Part shown: piece after piece, positions 336 to 30,561 of the stretch
How positions within the stretch are numbered: position 1 is the first letter of the stretch
Layout: every line of letters starts with the position of its first letter
Virus record (IMG/VR): IMGVR_UViG_2529293142_000025
Span: 1-30,932 of that record
DNA from: a virus
Taxonomy: Duplodnaviria > Heunggongvirae > Uroviricota > Caudoviricetes
Reading direction: 5' to 3' (one strand)
DNA: 30,932 bases
Program-made: the position numbers and the translations under genes
The notes under the pieces: generated by a model
Databases searched by the model: none
Told to the model about the DNA's origin: nothing
What the model saw: only the letters and a program-made list of their open reading frames with translations

Positions 336-336
336 A

Positions 337-777: not shown

Positions 778-787
778 TCACTTCCCC

Positions 788-1933: not shown

Positions 1934-1936
1934 AGC

Positions 1937-3996: not shown

Positions 3997-4037
3997 CGGG
4001 TCATCCTTAATGGCCCCGCCAGGGGGCCATATGGCTG

Positions 4038-4979: not shown

Positions 4980-4990
4980 TCGTCTGTTCC

Positions 4991-5416: not shown

Positions 5417-5498
5417 CGGTTCGACGGTTAAGTCCTGCGGGCGAGAGACAGCCCGGCAATGCCAACAGGCATCCGGTACAGAAATACATTATTCATTT

Positions 5499-6373: not shown

Positions 6374-6717
6374 ATCAGACTGCTCACCGTCCCGCGCCGG
6401 ACATTCTGGAGGTGCCCGACAGCAAGCTCTTTCCAGTTCTCGGGATTTACCAGCCGCACATTCCCGTTTTCATCTTCAGGATGCAGAATCGTGATGCTCA
6501 TCCCTTCGAATGAGGCAAGCGTGGCCGGATGGAATACCTGCTCAGGAGAACGCGTGACGACTATTTCACCGAACTTATCGGGTTTCAGTTTTGGCAGGTC
6601 ATCAGCACCATAGAGCTGCTTACCTGTTCGTCCTATCGGCACGTCTTTGCACAGCAACGAGCCGTCAGCCAGCTGATAGCGGGTTTCCCCCAGCCGGGTA
6701 TTGAAAAAATATTTCAT
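6370..6717 (-). CDS. phage head-assembly protein (may belong to the same gene family as the adjacent ORF)
   Basis: 115 aa ORF, ATGA overlap with the 149 aa ORF. Confidence 0.35.
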
Positions 6718-6731
6718 GTGTTACCTGCGAT

Positions 6732-7505: not shown

Positions 7506-8823
7506 TCTCGATGTCCTCGTCGGTAATGGATGCCCCGATGCCGGTTACGTCAGAATTTTCTCGCAAATCAGTCATAGCGGCCTTCAGTGTCATCAGACCA
7601 TCACCCAGCGCTGTACTGATTGCGTTGGTAGTGTTTAACGCCACCGTTGAGCGATCGACATCAGACATTTGCCAGAGCGGGTTAAACTCAAACGTGAAAT
7701 CGTCCGGCAGCGGCTTGCCAAGCTCCGAACGATGCATGATGTCCAGTATCCGCCGCACCGGAAGACGTAAACGCCTCTCCTGCAACGAACTGATGCGGTC
7801 GTAATAGTTGGCAAGGTCTGCATCACCGGTAGAAAATCCTTTCGGGGACTGTCCGAACAACCGCACCAGTGGGATACCAACAGCGCCACTAATCTGTTCT
7901 GCAAACTGTGATAGGATGTCATCCAGACCACTGAAGCTGTACTGATGCGTTTCAAACTTATCCCGCGAGTCCATGAGCGTCATGCCTTCATTGCTCTGGA
8001 ACTGTCGAATCAGGTCGATATTCTTCAGCAACGCTTCATACGCAGGACCACCAAGTGCGATAAGCTCGCGTAGCTTCTCCACGCTGTAGGTACGCAAATG
8101 CGCTTTGTAGACCAGCTGCGCCGCGCCGACAGTAGCGCTGTCGAACGCGGTAAGACGATCCCAGATACGCTCTACAACCGACATTCCCCATTCGTTCTCG
8201 GTCATCTTCTGCTGAAATGGCAGCGTGACGCCATCAAAGCGAATCAGTCGACTGTGATGAATGCGCCAGGCAGGAATTCCCGTTGCTGTGGTCACCACAT
8301 CGTAAAACTCAGGTTTACCCAGGTCCGGCCCCATATCTTTAATGCGGCGGGTCAGTACCGGGTCAATCATCCAGCGGTCGAGCGGGAGAATCCCCTTAAA
8401 CTTGCCCTTACCGATGGTTTCGGGTCGCAGCGGGGTCATTGGTGCCTGCCCCTCAATCATGATGAAACCCACCGCGCCGCCGTAGAGACGCGACCATTTC
8501 AGCACGTCATTCAGCGCATCCCAGATTTGCAACTCATCCAGTTGTGATTCGAGAATGCCACGATCTTTTGCATCAATTTCCGAAGTGATGCGAATGCCTT
8601 TGCGGGTCATATCATCCGGGATAGCATCGACTGCTTCGCCGATGATCCAGGATGAACGATAGGACCATTCCACCAGCATGCGGTTACGACTGGTGAAATT
8701 AGCCCGGTAGGTGGATGCTGAGTGCTGGTTAGGTGTCTGCATCCCTACGCGGGCAATAAAATTCTCATAACCATCAGCTGTGGCCTGCGCAGTTCGCCGC
8801 AGGGCTTGTTTGTTTCGTGCCAT
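7357..8823 (-). CDS. portal protein
   Basis: 488 aa ORF immediately after terminase large subunit, acidic C-terminus; start shares position 8823 with terminase stop. Confidence 0.6.
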   Translation of the reverse strand: MARNKQALRRTAQATADGYENFIARVGMQTPNQHSASTYRANFTSRNRMLVEWSYRSSWIIGEAVDAIPDDMTRKGIRITSEIDAKDRGILESQLDELQIWDALNDVLKWSRLYGGAVGFIMIEGQAPMTPLRPETIGKGKFKGILPLDRWMIDPVLTRRIKDMGPDLGKPEFYDVVTTATGIPAWRIHHSRLIRFDGVTLPFQQKMTENEWGMSVVERIWDRLTAFDSATVGAAQLVYKAHLRTYSVEKLRELIALGGPAYEALLKNIDLIRQFQSNEGMTLMDSRDKFETHQYSFSGLDDILSQFAEQISGAVGIPLVRLFGQSPKGFSTGDADLANYYDRISSLQERRLRLPVRRILDIMHRSELGKPLPDDFTFEFNPLWQMSDVDRSTVALNTTNAISTALGDGLMTLKAAMTDLRENSDVTGIGASITDEDIENAEDEAPPGIGEPDDEPQEPSGGNPVSNQPTQDSAGGRGHRKWSLRWFK

Positions 8824-10226
8824 CAGGCCTGTCTCCCCAGCTGTTCCCAGATATCCAGCGATGTATCAATTGGCGCGAAGGCCATAATGAATGCGTCAGC
8901 AACGTTTGGTGACGGTATCTCGCGTTTTGCGAGGTCTTTTTTACTTTCGACCATCACACGTCCGTTACGGTCAAAATCGCGATGAGGTGTTGTCAGTTCC
9001 AGTTTCAGCTTTTCAAGCAACGGACAACGAGAATCTATGCTGATCAGCTCATCCACAGGATACTGTTCTCCGTTGTTAATGGCGTTAAACGTATTTCTGA
9101 AACGGTCAGCCACCAGCCACCATGCCTGAGCCTTAAGATTTGCGAAAAAGTCTTTGTTGGGGATGCCGTTGTATTCGTCATCTGGCTCATGCACACCAGC
9201 ACCGGCGTTAAACCTCTGGTAATTCACACGTCTCGCGTATGCATTCTCGCTCTTCCGGTCAGCGTTAATTTCAGAGAATTTAGCACCGGCAGACGCACCA
9301 ACACCGATAGAGTCGTAAACAATTTCTGCTTCACGCTCCAGCGCCGCCTGATAAGTACGCTGGCAGCTCTTCAGTAATTCATCTTCTTTGGCCTTCCATT
9401 CGTCGGCCCAGAAAACAACGGATCCGTGACGGTAAACGTTAGCGCACTTATCTGTACCACTGTCAGCCACGTCAAAGCCAATACGCTTTCTTCCACTGGG
9501 TTCGAAATTTAACGTTTTGTGCGCATCCACTGCGGCTTCTATCCAGGACAGTTTGATGATTGCCGCATCATCATCAGACTCCGGAACGCCCTCATACACA
9601 TGTTTAAAACCATCCGGATCACGGCGTCGCGCCGCGTCGATAACCTTAAGCATGGTGTCAGACAGAAACGGATTTTCGTCATAGTTAATTTTGCGGATGA
9701 GAGTGCCTTCGGGCGGATCAACAACGAAGTTGCGCCAGACGAAATCAGTAACAAGTCCGGGATTGAATATGAACCAGCATTCCGAACCCTCTTTACGGAT
9801 CGTTGGCTCCAGAATTTTCCACTGGTATTCCGTCAGTGCGTGGGCTTCTTCCAGCCACAACACATCGATCCCCTCCAGTGACTTAATTTCTTCGATGTTG
9901 CGCCATAATCCATAAAAAACAAATTCCGAGCCAGTAACCCGGTTAATGATTTTGTTGTTCAGAATACGGAAACGGTGCCGCAGGCCAAACCTGTCTATCT
10001 GAATTTTGAGCAGGGTATACACCGACTCTTCGATTTTGTTCTGGATCTGACGGGCACAACAAAAACGCAGGGTGTATTTATTCGACAGAAATATGGCAAT
10101 ACCAGCGGCATCCCATGATTTTGACGATGACCGGCCACCATAAAGCACTTTGTTACGTGCCCGCGTAGTCCAGAAACTACGTAAAGCCGGATTAAGCGTC
10201 GGTTTGGATGTCAGAGTAGAAGTCAT
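8823..10226 (-). CDS. terminase large subunit
   Basis: Walker A-like YGGRSSSKS near N-terminus, about 470 aa; start chosen at ATG 10224-10226 (alternative ATG at 10244); the longer track ORF start is probably not used. Confidence 0.8.
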   Translation of the reverse strand: MTSTLTSKPTLNPALRSFWTTRARNKVLYGGRSSSKSWDAAGIAIFLSNKYTLRFCCARQIQNKIEESVYTLLKIQIDRFGLRHRFRILNNKIINRVTGSEFVFYGLWRNIEEIKSLEGIDVLWLEEAHALTEYQWKILEPTIRKEGSECWFIFNPGLVTDFVWRNFVVDPPEGTLIRKINYDENPFLSDTMLKVIDAARRRDPDGFKHVYEGVPESDDDAAIIKLSWIEAAVDAHKTLNFEPSGRKRIGFDVADSGTDKCANVYRHGSVVFWADEWKAKEDELLKSCQRTYQAALEREAEIVYDSIGVGASAGAKFSEINADRKSENAYARRVNYQRFNAGAGVHEPDDEYNGIPNKDFFANLKAQAWWLVADRFRNTFNAINNGEQYPVDELISIDSRCPLLEKLKLELTTPHRDFDRNGRVMVESKKDLAKREIPSPNVADAFIMAFAPIDTSLDIWEQLGRQA

Positions 10227-10941
10227 TGAGGTCACGCTCTCCATTGCCATCATCAATACCTGCATCACGGCGAAGACGATCAGCCTCCAGAGACACCTTA
10301 TCGGTGGCGGCCTTGCGGTAGGCTGTATCAGCAAATATTTTTCCTACCGTCGCAAGCGTGCCAACGATGGACTCAATACGAACTGTATTGCGCATCATTG
10401 CTTTCTCGGCGGCGCTGATATTTTCCATCAGCATCTTCCTTTCCTGGTCCCCATTAGCATCTTCCAGCGACACCAGCCACCGACCAATATTCTCTGCAGC
10501 GACAAGGTTGTTAGCACGAAGGCGAAATAATTCGTCCTCGAGCGTCAACGCTTTAGCGTCCTCTATCACCTCATCTTTGAGCAGAAGGCGACGGGCATAA
10601 CCACCGTGTTTTAATGCCTGCTGGTTACCGGGTTGGAATGGGTTAGTCGGGGGATCGGTACGCATTCCGCGTATCGGTTTCGTATCCGGTGTAGCTTCTG
10701 TTTTTGGTTGCGTACCTTTTTGTGTAAGGCCAGTAATGGCAGGCTTTCTGCTGGTACGCACTTTTCTTTTTTGCGTACCATTTTTGCAAACCTGCGTACC
10801 GCCACTGCGTACCCAACCAAGCTTTTTAGCCCTCTTCCTGATAGCCCCTTCTGTTACGCCATATTTCTCGCCTATATCACGGAGGCTAAGGACTCCGGCC
10901 CGGTATGCCGTTTCGATGGCCTCCCAGTCCGGTTTTGCCAT
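10192..10941 (-). CDS. terminase small subunit (HTH DNA-binding)
   Basis: 249 aa ORF directly upstream of large subunit; N-terminal HTH-like LSLRDIGEKYGVTEGAIRKRAKKLGW. Confidence 0.6.
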   Translation of the reverse strand: MAKPDWEAIETAYRAGVLSLRDIGEKYGVTEGAIRKRAKKLGWVRSGGTQVCKNGTQKRKVRTSRKPAITGLTQKGTQPKTEATPDTKPIRGMRTDPPTNPFQPGNQQALKHGGYARRLLLKDEVIEDAKALTLEDELFRLRANNLVAAENIGRWLVSLEDANGDQERKMLMENISAAEKAMMRNTVRIESIVGTLATVGKIFADTAYRKAATDKVSLEADRLRRDAGIDDGNGERDLNDFYSDIQTDA

Positions 10942-10999
10942 GAATTTTTCCTCTTAGTGACATTATCGCAGCCCCTCACCGAAGGGCTGCTGTAATGCC

Positions 11000-11188
11000 T
11001 TAACCCAGTTTCGCTCGCACCAGAGCATCTTTTGCTTCAAGCAATTTACGTAACCCAGCCGACTTTTCCGGACCGTCTGGCAAAGATTCATCCATTACTC
11101 TTGCCAGTTCACCAATTGGCTTACTCACTTCCTTTAACGAAGTCGGAAGATGCTCATAATTGAAATATTTCATAATTGACGATTCCAT
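11000..11188 (-). CDS. small hypothetical protein upstream of terminase
   Basis: 62 aa; AAGGAGA SD placed 6 nt before the second ATG of the track ORF. Confidence 0.35.
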   Translation of the reverse strand: MESSIMKYFNYEHLPTSLKEVSKPIGELARVMDESLPDGPEKSAGLRKLLEAKDALVRAKLG

Positions 11189-11220
11189 CATTTCTCCTTA
11201 GTAAAACAATTATCAGGCGA

Positions 11221-11402
11221 TCAGTTCTGCATACACTGCCGGACACCGTCGACAATTTCACAGACCTGAGAAGCTGTATCGAAAAGCTGGCGCGCCTTAT
11301 CCAGGCTGACGCATCCCACCAGGAAAAAGGCACCAGTATCGCTACCAGTGCCCATTTCGCCGCCGTTCGCGGCATTCTGTGTGTCCAGTGTTTTCGGCTC
11401 AT
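11221..11402 (-). pseudogene. lysis-associated lipoprotein (Rz1/o-spanin-like), frame broken in a homopolymer run
   Basis: ATG 11400-11402 with AGGTG SD encodes MSRKHWTHRMPRTAAKWALVAILVPF...; the next frame reads ...FFLVGCVSLDKARQLFDTASQVCEIVDGVRQCMQN-stop at 11221; one extra base in the run at 11324-11328 (T5 on the coding strand) yields a 61 aa lipoprotein precursor with basic n-region, hydrophobic core and LVGC lipobox. Confidence 0.45.
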
Positions 11403-11416
11403 AACACACCTGGTTA

Positions 11417-11800
11417 TCAGCGTTTCAACTGAAAGTGAGGCCCGTCTTTCAGTGTTTTCCAGTCCCCGCCCCATTCGATGGCAGTTCCCAGCTCTGCGGC
11501 AGCCTGCTTAAATGCCTGCGCGATTTTCTCGTACAGAGGCCAGTCCCATGACACCTGGCTGCCAATGTAGGCCACAACATCCACCGCATCACCGGTCAGG
11601 TGGCGGCTGTTCATGGTCTGGCTCTTGCCTTCTGCAACCAGCTGTTTCTGGCGTTCTTTCGTGCGCAGACCTTCTGTAACACCGAAATCAACCTCCGTCA
11701 GCTCCAGCGCACGGCGAACGACAGCAACCAGCTGTGGTTTGACGCCCTCCAGATTTTTTTCACTGCGACGACTGAATCTGAATTTACCCGACATGCTCAC
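11417..11800 (-). CDS. endolysin, peptidase M15 (L-alanyl-D-glutamate/D-Ala-D-Ala peptidase type)
   Basis: 127 aa with H..D and GGDW-type motifs of M15 peptidases; sits in the lysis cassette after holin genes. Confidence 0.65.
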   Translation of the reverse strand: MSMSGKFRFSRRSEKNLEGVKPQLVAVVRRALELTEVDFGVTEGLRTKERQKQLVAEGKSQTMNSRHLTGDAVDVVAYIGSQVSWDWPLYEKIAQAFKQAAAELGTAIEWGGDWKTLKDGPHFQLKR

Positions 11801-12072
11801 CTCCGGAATGAAAGGATTTTTGAAACGTTCCCGCGTGCGCGTATTACCAGCACGCAGAACAGCAAATTAAGCCCCACCGCCAGCCAGTTCGCCGCTAACG
11901 GGCGACCACACAGATAGCTGAGGGGCGCAAAGGCATACAGCAGCATCAGCAGCCAGGCCAGCCATGACATCAGCGGTTTGTGTCTGGAGTCACGACGACG
12001 ATAAAAAAAGAGCGTCAGCACGATAACCGTGCATAACGCCACATTCAGCAATCCGGGAAGGTTACTTAACAT
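11797..12072 (-). CDS. small multi-TM membrane protein (holin/antiholin-like)
   Basis: about 91 aa with 2-3 hydrophobic segments; ATGA coupling to endolysin start at 11797-11800. Confidence 0.4.
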   Translation of the reverse strand: MLSNLPGLLNVALCTVIVLTLFFYRRRDSRHKPLMSWLAWLLMLLYAFAPLSYLCGRPLAANWLAVGLNLLFCVLVIRARGNVSKILSFRR

Positions 12073-12454
12073 TGCCGCCTCCTCCACCCCGCAGGCGGGA
12101 GAACAGGCCGGACACCAGTGATGCGATATCCTGCTGGTGGATGAACGACAGAATCTTCACCGACACCACCGCCACCAGCACCGCACACAGTGCATCCGCA
12201 GATGTACCGTCATAACCTGTTTTTGATGCAATCCAGGCTGACAGTACACGCGCCCCCAGTACACCAACAATGAACGACACCAGAAAATGTGCCGCCACAC
12301 GCCAGGCTGAAATCTTCTGCGGCATCGTTGCCACAAACAACGCCCCGGCGAACGCACCAAACACAATCCCGAAATCCGTTCCGGTAAACAGCCCGAATAC
12401 CGTCGCCCCGCCGAGCGCCGCAGCCGTGCCGGAACCGGATAAGGGTTCAGACAT
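12062..12454 (-). CDS. putative holin
   Basis: 130 aa Gly/Ala-rich membrane protein starting MSEPLSGSGTAAALGG; AGGAG SD 8 nt upstream of ATG 12452-12454; the track ORF upstream extension is not supported. Confidence 0.5.
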   Translation of the reverse strand: MSEPLSGSGTAAALGGATVFGLFTGTDFGIVFGAFAGALFVATMPQKISAWRVAAHFLVSFIVGVLGARVLSAWIASKTGYDGTSADALCAVLVAVVSVKILSFIHQQDIASLVSGLFSRLRGGGGGNVK

Positions 12455-12472
12455 ACTTTTTCTCCTGTAAAT

Positions 12473-12494
12473 AAAAAAGGGCCACCAGCGGCCC
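12473..12494 (-). terminator. Rho-independent terminator between cargo cassette and holin
   Basis: minus-strand hairpin GGGCCGCTGGTGGCCC followed by TTTTTT. Confidence 0.5.
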
Positions 12495-12545
12495 GTAAAA
12501 AACAACACCCCGTCAAAGGCACCCGCAGATGCCTTTTGTGTGGTG

Positions 12546-12698
12546 TTATTCAGATTTGCGCAGTAAAGGCCGGAGTACGGCCAGCGCCATCGCCACCAGC
12601 ACACCATCTGCCAGCACCGACATCAGCCGTCCGGTGAAATCCACCACCACTACCAGAAACAGCAGGATGGCAGCCAGCACAAGGCGCGCACTTTTCAC
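12546..12698 (-). CDS. small hydrophobic protein (50 aa, two predicted TM segments)
   Basis: GTG start with GGAG SD 8 nt upstream, overlapping the stop of the TerB-like gene; VKSARLVLAAILLFLVVVVDF...; below the ORF-track size cutoff. Confidence 0.3.
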   Translation of the reverse strand: MKSARLVLAAILLFLVVVVDFTGRLMSVLADGVLVAMALAVLRPLLRKSE

Positions 12699-13120
12699 AG
12701 GTACTGCTCCAGCGGTAACTGCAGCGCCTGAGCAATTTTCTTGAGCTGTGCTTCTTCATCCGGACCAATGCCATCCTGGTCAGCGATATCCAGACACAGG
12801 CACAGCACATTAACTGCATCATCAGTACCGGCAACATCAGCCAGCTGACGAAGGGCTTCGGCATTGGCAGAACGCGGCGACGCTTCATAACGGGCGCGGA
12901 TATTTGCACTCATTTGTGCAATCTCACCGGAGAACGGCGCAAAGGCAGGAAGTGCTGCAATGGTTTTCTCCAGTACCGCGACTTCTTTCGCGTCACAGGT
13001 GTCGTCAGCATATGCAATGGAATACGCGCCCCAGACGGTCGCCTCCACTGCGTCGCGGTTCTCCATCTTCTTCACTTCGGTAATGGCCTTGCGGGTTTTC
13101 TTTTTGAAAATACCAAACAT
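12695..13120 (-). CDS. TerB-like domain protein (cargo gene)
   Basis: 141 aa; two repeats of the pattern hydrophobic-A-x-D-[DG]-x4-E (AYADDTCDAKE and DIADQDGIGPDEE) as in TerB/DjlA-N helical domains; memory-based. Confidence 0.45.
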   Translation of the reverse strand: MFGIFKKKTRKAITEVKKMENRDAVEATVWGAYSIAYADDTCDAKEVAVLEKTIAALPAFAPFSGEIAQMSANIRARYEASPRSANAEALRQLADVAGTDDAVNVLCLCLDIADQDGIGPDEEAQLKKIAQALQLPLEQYL

Positions 13121-13800: not shown

Positions 13801-13875
<75 letters not shown>

Positions 13876-13878
13876 ATA

Positions 13879-13954
<76 letters not shown>

Positions 13955-14317: not shown

Positions 14318-14929
14318 TTAAAGCTGCATCAGCCTTTCCACCAGTTTATCTCTGCGAACAACAAACCAACCATTGGCTCTCGCCAGTTCCAGCCATGACT
14401 CAAGGGAAATAACAATATCATCATCCCGCAACTGAATTGTGGAAACAGTGACACCGCCTCGCTGATAACAGAGAACTCGCGTGTCGTAACTTTTCTGGCA
14501 TGAAGCTGGCGCTGACAGATCCTTTTGTCTGAAATAGCAGTCTTCCAGTTTTTCGAACACATCCCACGCCTGATCGGTTTCGAGCATTTTGGCGTGACGG
14601 GCTGCGCCTCGTTCTGTCCAGAGGATAAGGGAGCGGGCTTTCGGGGAAATTTGTAACCCTCTTAAAGATGGTTGCAAATTTTGTGAGTTACTTAAAGTAA
14701 CCCGCAAATTTTGTGAGTAGTTTAAAGCTACCCGCAATTCTTTAAGGTCATTACCAACAACTTTGAAAAAGTGTTTCCCTTCAACGAAGCGTGCTTTGTT
14801 CTCATGATGATTCTGGCGAATACGCACCGGCTCAGTGCCGTAAAGCTGCGCCAAAAGTTCGGTGGTAATAACAGGAATCTGGTTATGGGTGATAGGGGAG
14901 AGAGTTTCAACAGAAATTTGAGTTGTCAT
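14318..14929 (-). CDS. antirepressor-like DNA-binding protein (KilA-N/ORF6N-type, Roi-like)
   Basis: 203 aa; N-terminal ...LLAQLYGTEPVRIRQNHHENKARFVEGKHFFKVVGNDLKEL and ...SLILWTERGAARHAKMLETDQAWDVFEKLE resemble the two halves of the KilA-N/ORF6N fold; first gene after the late promoter. Confidence 0.5.
   Translation of the reverse strand: MTTQISVETLSPITHNQIPVITTELLAQLYGTEPVRIRQNHHENKARFVEGKHFFKVVGNDLKELRVALNYSQNLRVTLSNSQNLQPSLRGLQISPKARSLILWTERGAARHAKMLETDQAWDVFEKLEDCYFRQKDLSAPASCQKSYDTRVLCYQRGGVTVSTIQLRDDDIVISLESWLELARANGWFVVRRDKLVERLMQL
14671..14733. repeat. about 30 bp tandem direct repeat (2.5 copies) inside the roi-like gene
   Basis: GGTTGCAAATTTTGTGAGTTACTTAAAGTAACC / CGCAAATTTTGTGAGTAGTTTAAAGCTACCC / GCAATTCTTTAAGG on plus strand. 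Confidence 0.7.
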
Positions 14930-15090
14930 AATGACGCCCTCTGGTGGTTTCTTAATAACTCACCACCGACGACGCCAATCGTCTGGTGGTGAACTGTGCA
15001 GGGTTGGCGTAACCGGGAAACCGACCGGCGCGGATCTCTCCGCCCCCACACAGCCCACCATAATTCAGATGTGCGCGTGCATACGACAAT

Positions 15091-15112
15091 AAAAAACACG
15101 CTCGCGGCGTGT
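15091..15112 (-). terminator. tR-prime-like terminator downstream of late promoter
   Basis: minus-strand hairpin ACACGCCGCGAGCGTGT followed by TTTTTTATT. Confidence 0.5.
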
Positions 15113-15173
15113 ATCTGTCGCGGTCTCTATCCAGGACGCCAATCCCGACGCCAGATTTTGCTGGCGCGTGAGG

Positions 15174-15203
15174 AATATAGCCCCGGATAACAGATTGAGT
15201 CAA
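15174..15203 (-). promoter_or_regulatory. late promoter (pR-prime-like), Q-dependent antitermination region
   Basis: minus strand TTGACT, 18 nt spacer, TATATT; the -35 overlaps the Q stop codon, as in lambda. Confidence 0.5.
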
Positions 15204-16963: not shown

Positions 16964-17105
16964 ATAGAGACAAAAATATTAATCTGAAAAATATTTATTT
17001 CACGTCGTATATTTGATTATTTAATGTGCAGGTGCAATGACTTTTATTTTTGTTGTGTATATAATCAAATATATGGTTATTTTTCACCCTGCGTATTCAG
17101 CGCGC

Positions 17106-17198: not shown

Positions 17199-17354
17199 TT
17201 ACTCCTCAGGTTCGTAAGCTGTGAAGACAACGACCTCCGTCTGGCCGGTTCGGATTCGTACCTCGCAGAGGTCTTTCCTCGTTACCAGTGCCGTCACAAT
17301 GACGGTTAAACAGATGACGATCAGGGCGATTAACATCGCCTTTTGCTGCTTCAT
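17199..17354 (-). CDS. hok: Hok/Gef family type I toxin
   Basis: 51 aa MKQQKAMLIALIVICLTVIVTALVTRKDLCEVRIRTGQTEVVVFTAYEPEE; an in-frame upstream mok-like extension starts at 17411; structured leader with inverted repeats at 17451-17490. Confidence 0.8.
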   Translation of the reverse strand: MKQQKAMLIALIVICLTVIVTALVTRKDLCEVRIRTGQTEVVVFTAYEPEE

Positions 17355-17542
17355 AGCCTGCTTCTCCTTGACCTTTCGGTCCGTAAGAGGCAATCTATAT
17401 GTGTCTAGCATATAGGGGCCTCACTTCGATTTATAGTCGGGTGGGGCTTTTATCTATCTGCCGTTGGTGTTCATGCCTGAGGCAGATAGCCTCAAGCACC
17501 CGCAGCAATTCTACTTAACTCTCCTTTTCCCGCAAACCGTTT

Positions 17543-19070: not shown

Positions 19071-19512
19071 ACTCCTCTCCTTTGATGTGAATGCCAGCAA
19101 CACGTAGTGCATGTTCTAAGTCAGCCAGATAAAGCCAGCAGCCATTTTCTTTAGGTATCATGACGTGGCGCTCATCATCATTTATCGGATGTCCATATCG
19201 AAGGCCGTAGCGAGTCGGCAAATGAACTTCCCGCGCTTCCAGCTCTTTAACACGTTCCTCGAGTTCGTAGACTCTGCATTGTTCTTTATCATCAATCAGA
19301 TATAACCCAAGACATTCGCTTTCTACCCAGCCACCGAAATCATGATCGTAACGCTCACACGAAAACTCACCATCGCTGTCCTTTGTTGGAATGGTGTAAC
19401 TGTCTAATGGGCCGCCATACGTCGGCACATTTCCCAATGTCGGATGCTCAATCCACATGAAAAATGCACGTCCGGTTATAGGACAAATATCTGGTCGCCA
19501 TTGGTTACTCAC
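19048..19512 (-). CDS. nin-region hypothetical protein
   Basis: about 154 aa from GTG 19510-19512, 6 nt after AGGAGG. Confidence 0.4.
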   Translation of the reverse strand: MSNQWRPDICPITGRAFFMWIEHPTLGNVPTYGGPLDSYTIPTKDSDGEFSCERYDHDFGGWVESECLGLYLIDDKEQCRVYELEERVKELEAREVHLPTRYGLRYGHPINDDERHVMIPKENGCWLYLADLEHALRVAGIHIKGEEYGNKTRR

Positions 19513-19804
19513 TGTTTGCCTCCTGGAAAATAACTGCATGCCCCAGTTTCTCCGCCAGCGCCAGTTCTGCCTTAGCACCTGCTGACCGCTGCCAGCCTTT
19601 CAGCATGTAAATCGCATCCACACAACGAATCATTGCCATGCAAATATCCATGTAGTGTGGCTGTGTCAGTCCGTCCGGAAGTACTGCCGGGTTTAAGACT
19701 GTATGCCCTTCCCGTTTCAGTTCCTCTTCCGCCTTGTGGAACGCCTCACGGTTGAAATTTTTATATCCGGTCATTGGACCGGCGATATAGACTCTCACCC
19801 TCAC
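19505..19804 (-). CDS. nucleoside 2-deoxyribosyltransferase-like protein (DUF4406-like)
   Basis: 99 aa beginning MRVRVYIAGPMTG...; family assignment from memory. Confidence 0.4.
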   Translation of the reverse strand: MRVRVYIAGPMTGYKNFNREAFHKAEEELKREGHTVLNPAVLPDGLTQPHYMDICMAMIRCVDAIYMLKGWQRSAGAKAELALAEKLGHAVIFQEANSE

Positions 19805-20229
19805 GCCATCACCTCCTGAAAATTACCCTGATAAAACGCCAACACTCGCTGCATAACCTCACTCTTCCGGCACTCGCGACAGATTATGTTCAGGTGTCTG
19901 TCGTAGCGGCGTATTTCTCCGTCTGGTAACTTTCGAATCAGTGTCTGGTCAGTTGTTTTCTCCGGTGTCTTACGCCATTCACGATACGCCTGCTCTGATG
20001 CAAAAACACCGTATTCCCCGGACATATATAAATCACCACAAGCCAGTACATCCACAAGGCAGCGTCGGACCGAATGCCAGCCAGCTCCCGTCGCTCTCTC
20101 CAGTTGCGACATCGTCATGCGTTCATTTTTGCGTACCAACCCGATAATTCGTGCCTTTAGCTCTTCCCGCTGTTCGGATGTAAAAACTTTTGCCACAAGT
20201 CCTCCTGAAAAATCACCTTCACAATTCAT
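19801..20229 (-). CDS. Ren-like protein
   Basis: 142 aa; C-terminal LNIICRECRKSEVMQRVLAFYQG resembles lambda Ren C-terminus; located directly after the P-like gene as in lambda. Confidence 0.4.
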   Translation of the reverse strand: MNCEGDFSGGLVAKVFTSEQREELKARIIGLVRKNERMTMSQLERATGAGWHSVRRCLVDVLACGDLYMSGEYGVFASEQAYREWRKTPEKTTDQTLIRKLPDGEIRRYDRHLNIICRECRKSEVMQRVLAFYQGNFQEVMA

Positions 20230-20891
20230 ACAAAACCAGCTGCCTTCCGGCGTTCATACTCCCGTTTCAGCAACTCAATTGGTGTTGGCCCCGACGGGCG
20301 TTTTGGTGCTGCCAGTTGCCGCCGTACGGGCGGAACGCTGAAGCCGTCACCAACATGCTTTGCCCATTTCGCTAGTTGCCGTTCTGCAAGTCGTTTTAAC
20401 TCCCCTTCGGTCATCTGGCGCTCAATCCCCTTTGAACGCATCTCGAGGCAAATGTGATACAGCACAGGCTGAGACCACGGGTATTTATCGCTTCCGTCGT
20501 ATCGCCAGGACTCATTGCGCCAGCGGCGGTACTCCTTCATCACAACATCAACCGTCAGACCGAATGGATTGGCTCCGCTTTCCGAAATCAGTGCCACAAA
20601 CTCAGCCAGGTCCGGAGGCCATGTTTCACCCGTCCGGCAGCGGTCCATGCACTGGCGGCAGACCTGTCGGATTTGCTGCTCAGTCATCGCGCCAATCTGT
20701 GCAATCCAGAGCTTCGAAGGTGCGGCCCCGTTCTTCTGGGTCCAGCGGTTCGAATAAATCTCCCCCATGAGTTCCCACAGCTTCCAGGCAGTTTCCGTCG
20801 TTGATAAATCCGTTTTCACGTTCCCACTGCTCACGTGCTGCCCGAATTTCCTGAACTGCCCGTGATGCGGTGCCACCTGGCGCGGCTGCAT
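20226..20891 (-). CDS. replication protein P-like (helicase loader)
   Basis: 221 aa; central and C-terminal similarity to lambda P (..YPWSQPVLYH.. vs ..YPWKSNAHYW..); SD AAGGGGGTGA before ATG 20889-20891. Confidence 0.6.
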   Translation of the reverse strand: MQPRQVAPHHGQFRKFGQHVSSGNVKTDLSTTETAWKLWELMGEIYSNRWTQKNGAAPSKLWIAQIGAMTEQQIRQVCRQCMDRCRTGETWPPDLAEFVALISESGANPFGLTVDVVMKEYRRWRNESWRYDGSDKYPWSQPVLYHICLEMRSKGIERQMTEGELKRLAERQLAKWAKHVGDGFSVPPVRRQLAAPKRPSGPTPIELLKREYERRKAAGFV

Positions 20892-21726
20892 GACTCACCC
20901 CCTTGCTGACTGGTTTAACCTGCGCCCTGACGTGATTTACGTGACGGGCGAATTTCTGCTCCCACTGAACCTGCGTGAACACTTTGCCCTCATCGCTCCA
21001 GTAATCCCGGAAGGCGGCAAGTTCAGCAGGTGTAAATTCCGGCTCCGGCAGAGCCACTCCCCACAGTGCAGCCCGTCGTCGGAAATCCGGCGACGGATTC
21101 CAGCCGGCGGTCATCGGAAATTTTCCGATGGGTTCGCTCAGGCCTTCCAGGTAATCAGGTTCCGTTGCCTGCAACGGCAAACCATTCGACTCACTGACCG
21201 GAGCACTCTCGCGCACGCGCGCGTTATGTGTGGGGTTTAATTCTTTATCTGTATCTTTATCTGTCGTGACTCGTCGTGACATGTCGTGACATATGCGTGA
21301 CTCGTCGCGCGCCCCCTCATTCTGTTTTCGTAATTTTTCCCTCTCGCGCTGCGCTCTCTTGCGCTCTGCCGGGGATTTCGCGGTTTGTGAAACGTTGCCA
21401 TTGTCCTCTTTCAGTACCTGGCGTTTTTCCCATCCACTGATCAAATCTCCATCAAGTACCCGCCCCTGCATTGCCTGTAAAATTGAATCAATTACTTCTT
21501 CCGTCACATCAAGCGCACTTGCTAAATCTTCCGCTGTGACATCAATGTGACCACGTAGTGACACGCCGTGACATGTCGTGACATTTCGTGACGCGCTCAC
21601 CAGAAGGTGGATATACACAGCCATCACTGTTGCGATTGGCTGTCCTGACACCCTGGAAATTGTTCGCCACTTAGGATCGTTTGGCATGTCATGCCATAAT
21701 CTGAGCCAGGCGTTAGCCATACTCAC
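20680..21726 (-). CDS. replication initiator O-like protein with DnaT-like C-terminal domain; 3-prime end uncertain
   Basis: N-terminal HTH/replisome-organizer-like region; FPMTAGWNPSPDFRRRAALWGVALPEPEFTPAELAAFRDYWSDEGKVFTQVQWEQKFAR matches the DnaT C-terminal region from memory; contains two iteron arrays; the ORF overlaps the P-like gene by 212 nt. Confidence 0.55.
   Translation of the reverse strand: MSMANAWLRLWHDMPNDPKWRTISRVSGQPIATVMAVYIHLLVSASRNVTTCHGVSLRGHIDVTAEDLASALDVTEEVIDSILQAMQGRVLDGDLISGWEKRQVLKEDNGNVSQTAKSPAERKRAQREREKLRKQNEGARDESRICHDMSRRVTTDKDTDKELNPTHNARVRESAPVSESNGLPLQATEPDYLEGLSEPIGKFPMTAGWNPSPDFRRRAALWGVALPEPEFTPAELAAFRDYWSDEGKVFTQVQWEQKFARHVNHVRAQVKPVSKGVSHAAAPGGTASRAVQEIRAAREQWERENGFINDGNCLEAVGTHGGDLFEPLDPEERGRTFEALDCTDWRDD
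21233..21301. repeat. iteron array 1 with adjacent AT-rich tract (candidate replication origin)
   Basis: AT-rich TTCTTTATCTGTATCTTTATCTG followed by 4 direct repeats GTCGTGAC with 10 bp periodicity. Confidence 0.55.
21545..21592. repeat. iteron array 2
   Basis: 4-5 direct repeats of nTnGTGAC with 10 bp periodicity, same orientation as array 1. Confidence 0.5.
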
Positions 21727-21791
21727 CTCTTCTGATACCGAATCTTTTTACTCACGAATTGCCGGAAGCGATCCGGTATGAATATTGTCAG

Positions 21792-22217
21792 TCAATGCAC
21801 AACCACAATATTTCCCGCCGGACCACCACGATTCATCTGATTGAAACCAGCGATCGCCACTGCGACAAAATCATCAGCGTCTCTCACCAGTCGTTCCCGC
21901 GTCTCCACCAGCTCCCGAAAATAGGCTGAACTGTGGCTGCGCATTCGGGCCACCAGCAGAGGTGGCATTGCTGTTTCGATCGCTGGTAACAATGCCTGAA
22001 TTTTTTTAACCGCATCAGGGGTGTCTTTCTCCACCCAGCGGAAAATTTTCTGAGTATTGCGAGCCAGGGCTTCCGGATGGCTGTCGTCATACAGTTCTGG
22101 GAACGTCATACCCAGTTCAAAATAAGCCCTGGTTATTTCAGCTGCCGGAACTTTTTCACCGTCCGGATGCGCCCAGGCATTCATCGCCATGCGGATGTGT
22201 TCATGCTTGATTTTCAT
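21792..22217 (-). CDS. ydaT: YdaT-like protein (CII-position gene of Rac-type immunity region)
   Basis: 141 aa beginning MKIKHEHI; position immediately after the cro-like gene. Confidence 0.45.
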   Translation of the reverse strand: MKIKHEHIRMAMNAWAHPDGEKVPAAEITRAYFELGMTFPELYDDSHPEALARNTQKIFRWVEKDTPDAVKKIQALLPAIETAMPPLLVARMRSHSSAYFRELVETRERLVRDADDFVAVAIAGFNQMNRGGPAGNIVVVH

Positions 22218-22482
22218 GAATCAAGCTCCTAGAAAGTGGTTGTGTTAACGTTTTGGTATCTTCCAGCTCGGGCCAAATATTCATCCAATCAAAAGGCCTT
22301 AGTTGCTGACGTGTAACTTCACCATTACTGGCTCGCTCAATAAGGACACATAACGATGCCCCTAACACTTGACCTTTACTCAATGCCTTTCTTAGATAAC
22401 CGATGCTGGTACCACACTCGCATGCAAACATACGCTGTTCATCTGACGAAAGAGAATTGAGAAATATTCTTAATTCTTCCAT
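22201..22482 (-). CDS. ydaS: YdaS-like Cro-type HTH regulator
   Basis: 93 aa with HTH-like CGTSIGYLRKALSKGQ; divergent from repressor gene. Confidence 0.5.
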   Translation of the reverse strand: MEELRIFLNSLSSDEQRMFACECGTSIGYLRKALSKGQVLGASLCVLIERASNGEVTRQQLRPFDWMNIWPELEDTKTLTQPLSRSLIHENQA

Positions 22483-22499: not shown

Positions 22500-22582
22500 C
22501 ACAGCAAAGAATACCTGCAGGTAAACAAAAGTCAATACCCACAGGTTGTTTACCTTGCAGTAATCGCATCTATTATTTACCT
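22500..22582. promoter_or_regulatory. divergent promoter/operator region between ydaS-like and racR-like genes
   Basis: inverted half-sites GGTAAACAA (22520-22528) and TTGTTTACC (22546-22554) within flanking inverted repeats CCTGCAGGTAAACAA / TTGTTTACCTTGCAG. Confidence 0.5.
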
Positions 22583-23001
22583 ATGGACAAATATGAATTT
22601 AGACGACAGCAACTCATCAAAATTCGTGATGAGAAATGCGATGGTAAAGCGGTTAACGTGGCCAGAAAGATCGGGCGCGAGCCTTCTTATGTATCAAGAA
22701 TGTTGTACCCAGAGGGGAAAAAGGGAAAAAACGGATCGCTGATGATATGGTGGAGATTATCGAAGAGTCCTTTGGGTTACCCCGGGGATGGATGGATGGT
22801 ATCGTTTCATCATCAACGAACACAGCCTCCAGTTATGAAACAAGGGTTCTAACGCCACGACAACGTATTTTTTTAGATCTCTTAGACGAACTGCCAGAAA
22901 GTGAAGCGGATAACTTATTAAAAACTCTTGAAGAGAAAAAACAGTATTACAATATGATCTACGAAGAAATCCGTAAAAAGAAAGCACAAAACGCATCATA
23001 G
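22583..23001 (+). pseudogene. racR: RacR-like prophage repressor, split by a frame break in an A-run
   Basis: ORF 22583..22852 carries the N-terminal HTH (VARKIGREPSYVSRML) then decays into non-protein-like sequence; ORF 22747..23001 carries the C-terminal part and is open upstream without a start; frames join with one extra A in the A6 run at 22726-22731. Confidence 0.55.
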
Positions 23002-23045
23002 CTCACCAAACAACTAGTCACCAGTTAAGACACCGCAAAAAATTT

Positions 23046-23080
23046 ACCCATAGGTATTTACTTTTTAAATACCTATGGGT
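23046..23080 (+). terminator. perfect 15 bp inverted repeat downstream of racR (terminator or protein-binding palindrome)
   Basis: ACCCATAGGTATTTA-CTTTT-TAAATACCTATGGGT followed by T-rich ATCCTTCTTTTC. Confidence 0.35.
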
Positions 23081-23260
23081 ATCCTTCTTTTCATACCAAC
23101 TCACCCCGCTCCACAGAATGCAGGGCAATACTTCGAGTTACCAGGCAGTGGTCAGGGGTTAAGTAGCCAGCCCGAGGCATACGAACATGACGGCAGTTGT
23201 TGATTGATACAAAGCGCAGTAGATAAAACGTTCCGCCACCCGGCGTTAAGGGGAAAAAAG

Positions 23261-23639: not shown

Positions 23640-24044
23640 CGGAATACCTTATTACTGGTTGTGTGAGAACTCCAGTATACCACCGAGCCTGAAGTGGTAA
23701 AAAGACAGGCGCACAACACGAAGGCGCACGGAGGAGGTGTTTTTCCCTTAGAAGGCTTGTCGTTAAACTTCTTCGACCGTGCGCTTCCGGTTGTGAATAA
23801 CAACACTGCTGTGTGTAGTCTTGGTGGCATCAGTTTTTTCTTGAAGTTCGACTGATGTCCGCCCTTTTTAAAGTGAATTTTGTGATGCGGTGAATGCGGC
23901 TAAGCGCACGCGGCACAGTTAAAAGTCATGTTAGTCCTTATTGGTTTGGGTGGGAAAGCCGACTGTAATTGTTAACTGGTTGCAGTCACCTGGAGGCACC
24001 AGGCACCGCATCAACAAAGTTCATTTGTAAAAATGGAGATAATT

Positions 24045-24266
24045 ATGATTGCACATCACTTCGGAACTGATGAAATACCACGTCAGTGTGTGACTCCTGG
24101 TGATTATGTTCTTCATGAAGGCCGGACATATATCGCCTCGGCAAACAATATTAAAAAGCGAAAACTTTATATTCGTAACCTGACTACAAAAACATGCATT
24201 TCTGACTGCATGATTAAAGTCTTCCTCGGTCGTGATGGTTTACCTGTAAAGGCGGAGTCATGGTGA
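24045..24266 (+). CDS. kilR: KilR, FtsZ-targeting killing protein of Rac-type prophage
   Basis: 73 aa [32 protein letters not shown]...; GGAG SD 7 nt upstream; matches KilR as recalled. Confidence 0.7.
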
Positions 24267-24883: not shown

Positions 24884-27535
24884 ATGAGCACAAAACCACT
24901 CTTCCTTTTACGGAAAGCGAAAAAATCATCCGGTGAACCTGACGTCGTCCTGTGGGCAAGCGACGATTTTGAATCAACCTGTGCCACTCTGGACTACCTG
25001 ATCGTTAAGTCAGGTAAAAAACTGAGCAACTATTTTAAAGCTGTTGCCACAAATTTTCCTGTCGTTAATGACCTTCCCCCTGAAGGTGAGATCGATTTTA
25101 CCTGGAGTGAACGCTATCAACTCAGCAAAGACTCCATGACCTGGGAACTAAAACCGGGAGCAGCGCCAGACGACGTTCACCATCAGGAGGATGCACCGGA
25201 AACCGAAGAAGCGACGGGAGGCCAGGAAGAAAACGCGCAGGCAGACGCCCACGAGGATTGCCAGGATTGCGAAGTCTCTGTAGCCACTTTGCGGTTCACA
25301 CAGCGTCTTCTGCACATTTTTACGTATGCAGCCGGGGATCGAAAATACCTGCATCATGCCACCCGTGAACAACGCAAACACATTACTGCTCTTGAGATGG
25401 ATCAGGAAAACAGCTATGTCCAGAATCTGCTGTTGGCCATACGCAGCATGGCAGAACCGACAACTCTGGATAATGCCGCCCTGCTCCGCCTGACTGATGC
25501 AATTAAGGCAGTGTTCTCTATCACGAAAAAACATCAGCCCTATGAATTTAAGAATTTCATTTCAGCCTGGCTGGATACCGAACACATTGATCGCGGTCTT
25601 CTGACAAAAGAATGGCGAAAAGGGAATCGTGTTTCACGCATCACTCGCACGGCTTCCGGTGCTAATGCTGGCGGCGGGAACCTCACCGATCGCGGCGAAG
25701 GTTTCGTCCACGATCTGACATCACTGGCGCGCGATGTAGCCACTGGCGTACTGGCCCGTTCAATGGACGTGGACATCTATAACCTTCATCCGGCACACGC
25801 TAAACGCATTGAGGAAATTATCGCTGAAAATAAACCACCCTTTTCTGTTTTCCGCGACAAATTCATCACCATGCCTGGCGGGCTGGATTATTCCCGCGCC
25901 ATCGTGGTTGCGTCCGTGAAAGAAGCACCAATTGGGATCGAGGTCATCCCCGCACACGTCACTGAATATCTGAACAAAGTACTGACTGAAACCGATCATG
26001 CCAACCCTGATCCGGAAATCGTGGATATTGCCTGCGGTCGCTCCTCGGCCCCGATGCCGCAACGAGTAACAGAAGAAGGAAAACAGGACGATGAAGAAAA
26101 ACCACAACCATCTGGCGCAATGGCAGATGAACAGGCAACGGCTGAAACAGTGGAACCGAATGCAACTGAACATCATCAGAACACGCAGCCGCTGGATGCT
26201 CAGTCACAGGTAAATTCTGTTGATGCGAAATATCAGGAACTGCGGGCAGAACTCCATGAAGCCCGGAAAAACATTCCATCAAAAAATCCTGTCGATGCCG
26301 ATAAATTGCTTGCTGCATCACGTGGTGAATTTGTTGACGGAATTAGCGACCCGAACGATCCGAAATGGGTTAAGGGGATCCAGACTCGCGATTCTGTGTA
26401 CCAGAACCAGCCAGAAACGGAAAAAATCAGCCCGGATGCGAAACAACCTGAGCCAGTAGTGCAACAGGAACCGGAAATAGTCTGCAATGCCTGCGGTCAG
26501 ACTGGCGGGGATAACTGCCCTGACTGTGGTGCGGTGATGGGCGACGCAACATACCAGGAAACATTCGGTGAAGAGAATCAGGTTGAAGCTAAGGAAAAAG
26601 ATCCGGAGGAAATGGAAGGCGCTGAACATCCGCACAATGAGAATGCTGGCAGCGATCCGCATCGCGATTGCAGTGATGAAACTGGCGAAGTCGCAGATCC
26701 CGTAATCGTAGAAGACATAGAGCCAGGTATTTATTACGGAATTTCGAATGAGAATTACCACGCGGGTCCCGGCGTCAGTAAGTCTCAGCTCGATGACATT
26801 GCTGATACTCCGGCACTGTATTTGTGGCGTAAAAATGCCCCCGTGGACACTACAAAGACAAAAACGCTCGATTTAGGAACCGCTTTCCACTGCCGGGTAC
26901 TTGAACCGGAAGAATTCAGTAACCGCTTTATCGTAGCACCTGAATTTAACCGCCGTACAAACGCCGGAAAAGAAGAAGAGAAAGCGTTTCTGATGGAATG
27001 CGCAAGCACAGGAAAAACGGTTATCACTGCGGAAGAAGGCCGGAAAATTGAACTCATGTATCAAAGCGTTATGGCTTTGCCGCTGGGGCAATGGCTTGTT
27101 GAAAGCGCCGGACACGCTGAATCATCAATTTACTGGGAAGATCCGGAAACAGGAATTTTGTGTCGGTGCCGTCCGGACAAAATTATTCCTGAATTTCACT
27201 GGATCATGGACGTGAAAACCACAGCGGATATTCAACGATTCAAAACGGCTTATTACGACTACCGCTATCACGTTCAGGATGCATTCTACAGTGACGGTTA
27301 TGAAGCACAGTTTGGCGTGCTGCCAACTTTCGTTTTTCTGGTTGCCAGCACAACTGTTGAATGCGGACGTTACCCGGTTGAGATTTTCATGATGGGCGAA
27401 GAAGCAAAACTGGCAGGCCAGCAGGAATATCACCGCAATCTGAGGACCCTGGCTGACTGCCTGAATACCGATGAATGGCCAGCTATTAAAACGTTATCAC
27501 TGCCCCGCTGGGCTAAGGAGTATGCAAATGACTAA
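24884..27535 (+). CDS. recE: exodeoxyribonuclease VIII (RecE), C-terminal PD-(D/E)XK nuclease domain
   Basis: 883 aa; long acidic/disordered N-terminal and central region; C-terminal domain ...[34 protein letters not shown]...[14 protein letters not shown]...[16 protein letters not shown] matches the RecE nuclease domain. Confidence 0.85.
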
Positions 27536-28336
27536 GCAACCACCTATCGCAAAAGCCGATCTGCAAAAAACCCAGGGAAACCGTGCACCAGCAGCAGTAA
27601 AAATAACGACGTGATCAGCTTTATTAATCAGCCATCAATGAAAGAGCAACTGGCAGCAGCTCTCCCACGCCATATGACGGCTGAACGAATGATACGTATC
27701 GCCACCACAGAAATTCGTAAGGTTCCGGCGCTAGGAAACTGTGACACCATGAGTTTTGTCAGTGCGATCGTTCAGTGTTCACAGCTCGGCCTTGAGCCAG
27801 GTAGCGCCCTCGGCCACGCATATTTACTGCCTTTTGGTAATAAAAACGAAAAGAGCGGTAAAAAGAACGTTCAGCTAATCATTGGTTATCGCGGCATGAT
27901 TGATCTGGCTCGCCGTTCTGGTCAAATCGCCAGCCTGTCAGCCCGTGTTGTCCGTGAAGGTGACGAGTTTAGTTTTGAATTTGGCCTTGATGAAAAGTTA
28001 ATACACCGCCCGGGAGAAAACGAAGATGCACCAGTGACCCACGTCTATGCTGTCGCAAGACTGAAAGACGGAGGGACTCAGTTTGAAGTTATGACGCGCA
28101 AACAGATTGAACTGGTGCGCAGCCAGAGTAAGGCTGGTAATAACGGGCCATGGGTAACTCACTGGGAAGAAATGGCAAAAAAAACGGCTATTCGTCGCCT
28201 GTTTAAATACCTGCCTGTCTCAATTGAAATCCAGCGTGCAGTATCAATGGATGAAAAGGAACCACTGACAATCGATCCGGCAGACTCCTCTGTATTAACC
28301 GGGGAATACAGTGTAATCGATAATTCAGAAGAATAA
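27528..28336 (+). pseudogene. recT: RecT single-strand annealing protein, frame broken in an A-run near the 5-prime end
   Basis: ATG 27528 (overlapping recE stop) encodes [28 protein letters not shown]-stop (27612-27614); the main ORF 27611..28336 (VISFINQPSMKEQLAAALPRHM...) is in the next frame; one extra A in the A5 run 27599-27603 restores ...AAVKNNDVISFINQ... Confidence 0.8.
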
Positions 28337-28380
28337 TTCAGCCTGGCGGTGTAATGCACCGCCAACGTGAGACAGTTTTT

Positions 28381-28587
28381 ATGACAAAAATTATGAGATA
28401 TGACGATGTTAAACCATGTCCGTTTTGTGGTTGTCCATCTGTTACAGTGAAAGCAATTTCAGGATATTACCGGGCAAAATGCAACGGATGCGAATCCCGA
28501 ACTGGCTATGGTGGAAGTGAAAAAGAAGCACTCGAAAGATGGAATAAACGAACTACTGGAAATAATAATGGAGGTGTTCATGTATAA
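28381..28587 (+). CDS. ralR: restriction alleviation protein RalR/Lar-like, Cys4 zinc-ribbon
   Basis: MTKIMRYDDVKPCPFCGCPSVTVKAISGYYRAKCNGCESRTGYGG...; start at internal ATG 28381. Confidence 0.6.
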   Translation: MTKIMRYDDVKPCPFCGCPSVTVKAISGYYRAKCNGCESRTGYGGSEKEALERWNKRTTGNNNGGVHV

Positions 28588-28768
28588 AATAACTGCCACT
28601 ATTGAAAAAGAAGGTGGCACTCCTACTAACTGGACAAGATATTCAAAATCTAAATTAACGAAATCAGAATGCGAAAAAATGCTCTCAGGGAAAAAAGAAG
28701 CAGGCGTGTCCAGAGAGCAGAAAGTAAAGCTGATAAATTTTAATTGCGAGAAACTTCTGTCCTCGTGA
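28580..28768 (+). CDS. ydaC: YdaC-like small protein
   Basis: 62 aa MYKITATIEKEGGTPTNWTRYSK...; GGAGGTG SD 5 nt upstream. Confidence 0.55.
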   Translation: MYKITATIEKEGGTPTNWTRYSKSKLTKSECEKMLSGKKEAGVSREQKVKLINFNCEKLLSS

Positions 28769-30245: not shown

Positions 30246-30348
30246 AAAAAAGACCGGAATACAGAAATTCGAGTAAATTTCGAGTAATTTCGGGGAGACG
30301 TTTGCAACTAATTGATTTTAAATACAATTAAAAAAAGACCGAATACGA
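30246..30348. repeat. imperfect direct repeat AAAAAAGACCG(G)AATAC (30246-30263 and 30330-30348) flanking 11 bp tandem TTCGAGTAA units; candidate att core/arm sites at the prophage junction
   Basis: the second copy is the 3-prime half of the SdsR terminator; the first lies 86 bp toward int. Confidence 0.4.
30301..30328 (+). promoter_or_regulatory. sigma-70 promoter for RyeA
   Basis: TTTGCA, 16 nt spacer, TACAAT. Confidence 0.45.
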
Positions 30349-30432
30349 TTCCTGTATTCGGTCCAGGGAAATGGCTCTTGGGAGAGAGCCGTGCGCTAAA
30401 AGTTGGCATTAATGCAGGCTTAGTTGCCTTGC
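30330..30432 (-). ncRNA. sdsR: SdsR (RyeB) small RNA
   Basis: about 103 nt on minus strand starting GCAAGGCAACUAAGCCUGCAUUAAUGCC..., ending in hairpin GACCGAAUACAGGAAUCGUAUUCGGUC plus U7; sigma-S-like -10 TCTATTCTTAA just upstream; identity from memory. Confidence 0.6.
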
Positions 30433-30561
30433 CCTTTAAGAATAGATGACGACGCCAGGTTTTCCAGTTTGCGTGCAAAATGGTCAATAAAAAGCGTGGT
30501 GGTCATCAGCTGAAATGTTAAAAACCGCCCGTTCTGGTGAAAGAACTGAGGCGGTTTTTTT
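30336..30561 (+). ncRNA. ryeA: RyeA (SraC) small RNA, antisense to SdsR
   Basis: plus-strand transcript predicted from the TTTGCA/TACAAT promoter to the terminator at 30521-30561; fully overlaps sdsR on the opposite strand. Confidence 0.45.
30521..30561. terminator. bidirectional Rho-independent terminator (RyeA on plus, yebY on minus)
   Basis: hairpin AAAACCGCC...GGCGGTTTTTTT with U-tracts on both strands. Confidence 0.55.

Follow-up and report, generated by a model that had tools for sequence, protein, structure and literature searches.

A CI-type repressor gene of a Rac-like prophage is split between two frames at a shortened A-run, probably through an error in the assembly consensus

The window (the whole stretch of DNA that was analysed, 30,932 nucleotides long) harbors at positions 22583-23001, on the + strand, a single regulator gene, encoding a CI-type immunity repressor of 139 amino acids if intact, which is read in two frames as overlapping ORFs of the same strand, because the A-run at 22726-22731 counts six A's (A6) where the intact alleles count seven (A7). 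The frameshift in the window is most likely not biological: judging from assembled sequences, A6 is probably an error of the assembly, one base having dropped out of the consensus. According to this reading, the frame breaks after codon 49 because an A7 run reads as A6, the change would be one of at least seven private deletions of the window, the real gene would be intact, and nothing biological would follow.

The first of the two frames (ORF1, 22583-22852, +, 89 aa) encodes 49 native residues, corresponding to helices 1-3 of a helix-turn-helix (HTH) domain, followed by 40 out-of-frame residues; the second one (ORF2, 22747-23001, +, 84 aa) encodes residues 56-139 of the intact protein, i.e., helix 4, the linker, and a DicA-like helical hairpin, and in another A6 genome it was annotated alone by PGAP as WP_001301414.1. 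The alignment with two close relatives (L001 and L002) revealed that one extra A (A7) is the sole difference from the window within the gene, which confirms the earlier suggestion that two halves lying in different frames are joined by one additional A at 22726-22731. With A7, a single ORF of 139 aa is obtained, corresponding to WP_000362155.1, which is annotated as a "hypothetical protein". Therefore, the original prediction holds: the repressor gene of a prophage is disrupted because an A-run is one base too short, and the intact homologues are single A7 genes. The same prediction had named two separate genes at this position in homologues as the finding that would speak against it; the comparison with intact homologues gave one ORF of 139 aa instead, and no other part of the family is as well conserved as the junction, which with A7 reads ...YPEGKKGKKRIADDMVEIIEESFGLPRGWMDG..., so that two separate genes were rejected as the native state. 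The joining of the two frames is a matter of homology and not of chance.

A model of the intact protein obtained with AlphaFold (AF2; mean pLDDT 81) contains helices at residues 3-18, 23-30, 34-41, and 54-63, with a loop at 42-53, a disordered linker at 76-87, and a C-terminal helical hairpin made up of residues 92-102 and 106-138. The frame switch follows K49, in the loop that connects the recognition helix (34-41) with helix 54-63; the next residue, K50, is nearly invariant in the family alignment. Since the DNA-binding domain extends to about residue 75 and includes the invariant W70, the break falls inside it, after the third of its four main helices, and not between an N-terminal HTH half and a C-terminal half, as had been proposed. 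Both helix 54-63 and LPRGWMD, a conserved motif that holds W70, are missing from ORF1, and ORF2 has no DNA-binding helices. As far as the model goes, the ORF1 product is thus not an intact DNA-binding domain, and the idea of a truncated repressor retaining this domain has to be abandoned.

As regards the identity of the intact protein, it matches phrog_5736, a "transcriptional regulator" family of PHROGs, with an E-value of 4e-70. The Pfam search gave no family match, the PDB sequence search no significant structure, and the NCBIfam search only a partial match to DicA (NF007257), which reaches 23.9 bits where the cut-off is 101 and covers residues 86-136 only, i.e., short of a full-length match. 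A search in a large protein collection disclosed 70-80% identity between the first 75-88 residues and the N-terminal ends of prophage repressors of the LexA/S24 family, 221-242 aa long. The closest relative from a sequenced phage is the cI protein of mEp043, a lambdoid phage, with 65% identity in residues 1-86 (E = 2e-29); this protein and the CI of phage Tritos surfaced only in the search at the protein level, the phage collection having given no match at the DNA level. The N-terminal part is therefore an XRE/lambda-repressor-like HTH homologous to phage cI proteins, on which the CI-type assignment is based. The comparison of the model with known structures through Foldseek agrees with this, the N-terminal domain resembling XRE HTH domains (target-normalised TM 0.63-0.70, rmsd 2.5-2.8 A), although all the E-values are weak; the matches, equally with weak E-values, include controller proteins, HigA, SinR, and phage repressors, the top one being the Salmonella phage Rep repressor in complex with its antirepressor.

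The S24 domain (PF00717) is absent from the intact protein, and in the alignment its position is occupied by the DicA-like tail. Hence, the repressor is composed of a CI-type HTH domain (residues 1 to about 75), a disordered linker (76-87), and a DicA-like hairpin (89-138), without the S24 autoprotease. A similar DNA-binding domain (70-80% identical) is joined to an S24 peptidase in prophages of Salmonella, Edwardsiella, Pantoea, Klebsiella, and Citrobacter (P0061-P0147). The two forms represent an exchange of domains that occurred in nature, between a repressor cleavable in the SOS response and one that is not, and they probably have their operator specificity in common. Another family of PHROGs, phrog_27486 (59 positions, unknown function), matches only residues 1-50 of the repressor (E = 2.5e-36), and its members may be N-terminal pieces of copies with a frameshift.

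A lambdoid, Rac-like prophage, inserted beside ryeA/ryeB and yebY, has this locus as its immunity repressor in the CI position. In the cro position, on the opposite strand, there is a YdaS-like gene (22201-22482, -), whose match to the ydaS family is partial (Pfam YdaS_toxin, 9e-6, below the curated cut-off; phrog_35, 5e-23); it is followed by a CII-like regulator of the YdaT family (21792-22217, -; Pfam YdaT_toxin, 6e-10; phrog_163 "CII-like", 3e-45), which is 33% identical to YdaT of K-12, and by a replication gene with a DnaT domain (20680-21726, -). Two clusters of GTGACA(T) repeats (21280-21320 and 21540-21580) are embedded in the latter gene, their copy number differing between relatives; they look like origin iterons, by analogy with those in the O gene of lambda. 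On the other side, the operon downstream of the repressor contains kilR (24033-24266, +), encoding an FtsZ inhibitor 96% identical to KilR of K-12, and further downstream recE, recT, ralR/RalA, xis, and int, after which ryeA/ryeB and yebY are found. The RalR/RalA type I toxin-antitoxin pair lies at 28354-28764, and the chromosomal sRNA pair SraC/RyeA-SdsR/RyeB at 30326-30470, just beyond the integrase gene, marking the insertion site beside yebY.

The rest of the window has a full head, tail, and lysis module (positions 1-13000). Between the lysis and the late-regulation regions, two prophage-borne tRNA genes, for tRNA-Gly(TCC) and tRNA-Thr(TGT), are located at 13801-13954 (-). A module of the hok/sok type is present at 17199-17501, with the sok RNA at 17352-17501. 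Rfam elements corresponding to the C4 antisense RNA, isrK, and the c4-a1b1 target were also retrieved at 14318-15180 (-), directly upstream of an ORF6N-domain protein (14318-14929); together they form an antirepressor control module of the P1/P7 type, which would suit a repressor devoid of a self-cleavage domain.

Three operator-like sites of 12 bp, related to the sequence TACCNNNNGGTA, are located between the divergent genes at 22512-22523 (a perfect palindrome), 22536-22547, and 22551-22562, where they would function as operators. The exact TACCNNNNGGTA occurs three times in the 31-kb window (at 22512, 23045, and 23070), always flanking the repressor gene; the copies at 22536 and 22551 have one mismatch each, which gives five flanking sites altogether. 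When up to one mismatch is allowed, there are 11 copies window-wide versus a mean of 5.75 in shuffled sequences, i.e., weakly above expectation. The sites between the divergent genes overlap promoter-like hexamers on both strands (22549-22576 on the + strand and 22535-22508 on the - strand), such hexamers occurring at chance rate. Just after the stop codon of the repressor gene, a perfect 16-bp inverted repeat (23045-23081) contains two exact copies of TACCNNNNGGTA (23045-23056 and 23070-23081); this repeat is also compatible with a terminator-like hairpin. Two base substitutions affect the symmetry of these elements: the G at 22517, also present in L013 and L120, leads to the perfectly symmetric TACCTGCAGGTA, and the A at 23052, found in none of the 15 other aligned loci, perfects the inverted repeat.

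This layout resembles the OR/OL arrangement of lambda and fits a set of putative operators on the two sides of the repressor gene. If so, oligomers of the repressor would bind the TACCNNNNGGTA sites on either side of the gene and would shut off both the divergent operon with the cro/cII-like (ydaS/ydaT) and replication genes and the rightward kilR-recET-xis-int operon. Since the S24 domain is absent, RecA-stimulated self-cleavage is not expected; induction would then probably occur through an antirepressor, given that the repressor could not cleave itself.

The gene had originally been described as racR-like in a Rac-type setting. The setting stands, with the divergent ydaS- and ydaT-like genes and kilR downstream, and so does the label as far as position is concerned; at the sequence level it does not, the BLASTP comparison with RacR of K-12 having given as the best match one with E = 2.3 over seven residues, so that homology with RacR was rejected. 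The statement that RacR keeps ydaS and ydaT silent is known to be true of K-12 only, where RacR is essential because it silences these two genes (PMC5700373, PMC5700377). YdaS and YdaT have been treated as the equivalents of Cro and CII, and repressors of this kind as essential in the lysogen (PMC5917428, PMC9986795, PMC5700373, PMC5700377). RacR of the K-12 Rac prophage occupies the same position as the repressor of the window and presumably does the same job, with kilR, recE, and recT downstream in both cases; however, it is 158 aa long rather than 139 and shows no similarity in BLASTP.

A different pattern of likeness is observed with DicA of the K-12 Qin prophage, which is of similar size (135 aa versus 139) and shares the C-terminal helical domain (33% identical over 46 residues, E = 1e-7), whereas its N-terminal HTH domain has no detectable similarity to that of the repressor of the window. 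Most of the relatives of the window's gene are located directly upstream of ydfA-ydfB-ydfC-dicB, as dicA is; at the dicA locus, the dicB module lies downstream, while in the window kilR and recET are found in its place. The cI gene of mEp043 and those of the LexA/S24 CI repressors have the same position, divergent from cro/cII-type genes, but these repressors carry an S24 autopeptidase where the window's repressor has the DicA-like hairpin of 50 residues. In the temperate Escherichia phage Tritos and in the vB_EcoS-673R7 group, the CI protein, annotated "CI repressor" in Tritos, has the same two-domain build, even though it is distant in sequence (39.5% identical over residues 21-139). The gene of the window is the positional and, presumably, the functional equivalent of CI, RacR, or DicA.

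In order to interpret the A6 run, its distribution has to be considered. The repressor gene was retrieved from 822 of the 5426 complete Escherichia coli genomes, the 598-nt locus reaching 99.3% identity in the best case and 100% in none; positions 1-25000 of the window are not covered to 80% by any complete genome. A query of 71 nt centred on A6 found an exact match in two of these 822 genomes (MLI104K2 and ETEC1703), and 816 differ from it at about one position; an A8 allele occurs in none of 821 complete E. coli genomes. In IMG/VR, at least 120 contigs have the exact A7 stretch and none has an A6 or an A8 stretch; among the GTDB species representatives, the exact A6 47-mer had no match. On the other hand, the identical A6 allele is present in 13 other assemblies, in some of them on contigs of 24-139 kb, and in a set of 128 sequences that had been deliberately enriched for it, A6 was found 14 times, on several haplotypes. 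The 84-aa product of ORF2 is recorded in many assemblies, and the possibility that it is an annotation quirk of A7 genomes was rejected for the sample examined, all 10 of the fetched loci being A6.

When the A-run is masked, A6 is found on at least five haplotypes besides that of the window, each of which matches an A7 haplotype without a difference over about 500 nt, so that the change from A7 to A6, or its miscall, has arisen repeatedly. This recurrence is a reason for considering a real replication slippage from A7 to A6, which would have inactivated or severely weakened the repressor, so that the gene would be a pseudogene of the ordinary kind at a hot spot of mutation; this explanation is possible but less likely than an artefact. 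In three pairs of loci (L013/L016, L012/L018, and L004/L017) the haplotype and A6 are both shared, which, together with the contigs of 24-139 kb, speaks for the reality of at least some A6 alleles; A8-type products, such as P0046, exist as well, and the length of the tract hence differs among strains within the coding region (A6, A7, and A8-type). The mutation may therefore also occur for real. In the window itself, the slippage reading could appeal to the other broken genes of the prophage (cement protein, DUF2213, and recT, see below), the lesion being tolerated because the prophage would already be decaying; a dead prophage could carry every lesion seen. Nevertheless, the loss of a repressor of the CI/RacR/DicA type is expected to be lethal when ydaS/ydaT and kilR are intact (PMC5700373, PMC5700377, PMC5917428), and here they are intact.

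Further changes in run length accompany A6 in some of the public sequences. The T7 run matching 22862-22868 of the window is shortened in MLI104K2 (L003) and in Logan ERR4562137 (L008), both carriers of A6, and multiple frame switches are observed in P0049. These extra changes suggest that some of the public A6 alleles are probably errors too.

An indication in favor of a consensus error comes from the other private one-base deletions of the window, which was compared with three relatives (about 98% identity, about 18.4 kb aligned). Over this length, the window has six private deletions of 1 bp, versus 0-1 private 1-bp indels in each of the relatives, and the only private insertion scored in the window falls within divergent sequence that aligns ambiguously. 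Private substitutions, in contrast, are alike in an 11-kb block (54 in the window and 56-65 in the relatives). The deletions are located at 5451 (C4 to C3, cement-protein gene), at 5969 and 6386 (the latter C3 to C2; both in the DUF2213 gene), at 10985 (between genes), at 17046-17051 (around 17050, in or beside a T-run), and at 27598 (A6 to A5), where recT (27528-28336) loses its frame at about codon 25. Conserved genes are broken by four of the six, namely those for the cement protein, DUF2213 (twice), and RecT, the first two genes spanning 4991-6717 on the - strand. The presence of at least six further private deletions of 1 bp makes an artefact the leading explanation for A6.

The privacy of these lesions is confirmed by complete genomes. 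Of 339 complete E. coli genomes with this module, not one shares the four deletions in the region 5400-6450, and over the same region the nearest genome differs by four gaps and four mismatches, indels being locally about as common as substitutions (about 1:1). In the same way, the recT deletion is the sole difference in 900 nt from strain AH19B041 (L005). No nonsense mutation, multi-base lesion, or IS element was found in the same broken genes. A ratio of about 1:1 between indels and substitutions, with all the lesions being one-base deletions and none a nonsense mutation, has the look of consensus errors and is atypical of natural decay, and this also speaks against slippage in a decaying prophage. 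Moreover, since about 3-4 of roughly 40 runs of at least six bases are shortened in the window, the chance that this assembly has such an error at a given A7 run is on the order of 10%, versus less than 1% of A6 among the complete genomes.

Some observations do not conform to a simple error pattern. An 8-mer and other 7-mers are among several longer homopolymers that keep their length in the window, four private deletions fall in short runs or outside runs, and the replication module (19228-21800) contains no private frameshift in the comparison with a relative that is 94.8% identical, which means that the deletions are not evenly spread. All of these observations, along with the recurrence of A6 in other assemblies, count against an artefact.

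A further explanation is that A6 is a working allele of low output, in which a rare -1 slippage of the ribosome would yield the full-length protein with a K50N substitution, and the tract lengths A6, A7, and A8 would dim immunity in a heritable way; it is regarded as very improbable. The sequence GG A_AAA_AAC at 22726-22732 does contain a heptamer of the X_XXY_YYZ type in the zero frame of ORF1, and its -1 frame is the frame of ORF2 (CGG at 22732). The same heptamer, A_AAA_AAC, is that of the -1 frameshift site insA-insB' of IS1. It is cited as a proven frameshift motif, in an IS cluster without a known stimulator (PMC4066793). In the A6 allele it also lies in the reading frame, and the protein goes on in the -1 frame. 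The A6 allele differs from the IS1 site in that the heptamer arises from a rare deletion, is missing from the normal A7 allele and is hence not conserved, and is not accompanied by a stimulator: the fold of the region 22720-22800 is no more stable than those of shuffled sequences (z = 0.27), in line with the absence of a downstream stimulatory structure. Besides, frameshift-prone motifs that lack a stimulator did not exceed the background of about 0.05% by more than about 10-fold, K50 is nearly invariant, and a tract of 7 nt is short for phase variation. Points in favor of a working allele are that A6 recurs and that its carriers are viable with dicB, ydaS, and ydaT intact, as in ETEC1703. Equally doubtful is the broader proposal that the A7 tract is a recurrent slippage hot spot at which natural lysogens toggle heritably between full and weak immunity.

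Either of the two main outcomes falls into a known category, i.e., a homopolymer miscall or a slippage pseudogene. If A6 is an artefact, as appears probable, the assembly should be polished before any of its pseudogenes is interpreted, since at least five breaks of reading frames in 31 kb carry the same signature. If it is real, one more prophage gene would have been lost through homopolymer slippage, and the change from A7 to A6 would recur on several haplotypes in strains that keep the toxic genes normally silenced by such repressors; this would mean that the repressor is dispensable, that another silencer of the toxic genes exists, or that A6 is leaky, and the last of these, if true, would explain the survival of A6 strains with intact ydaS/ydaT, dicB, or kilR. 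As for the repressor itself, a CI-type domain with a DicA-like tail in the place of S24 is widespread among E. coli prophages, yet it has been annotated only as a "hypothetical protein".
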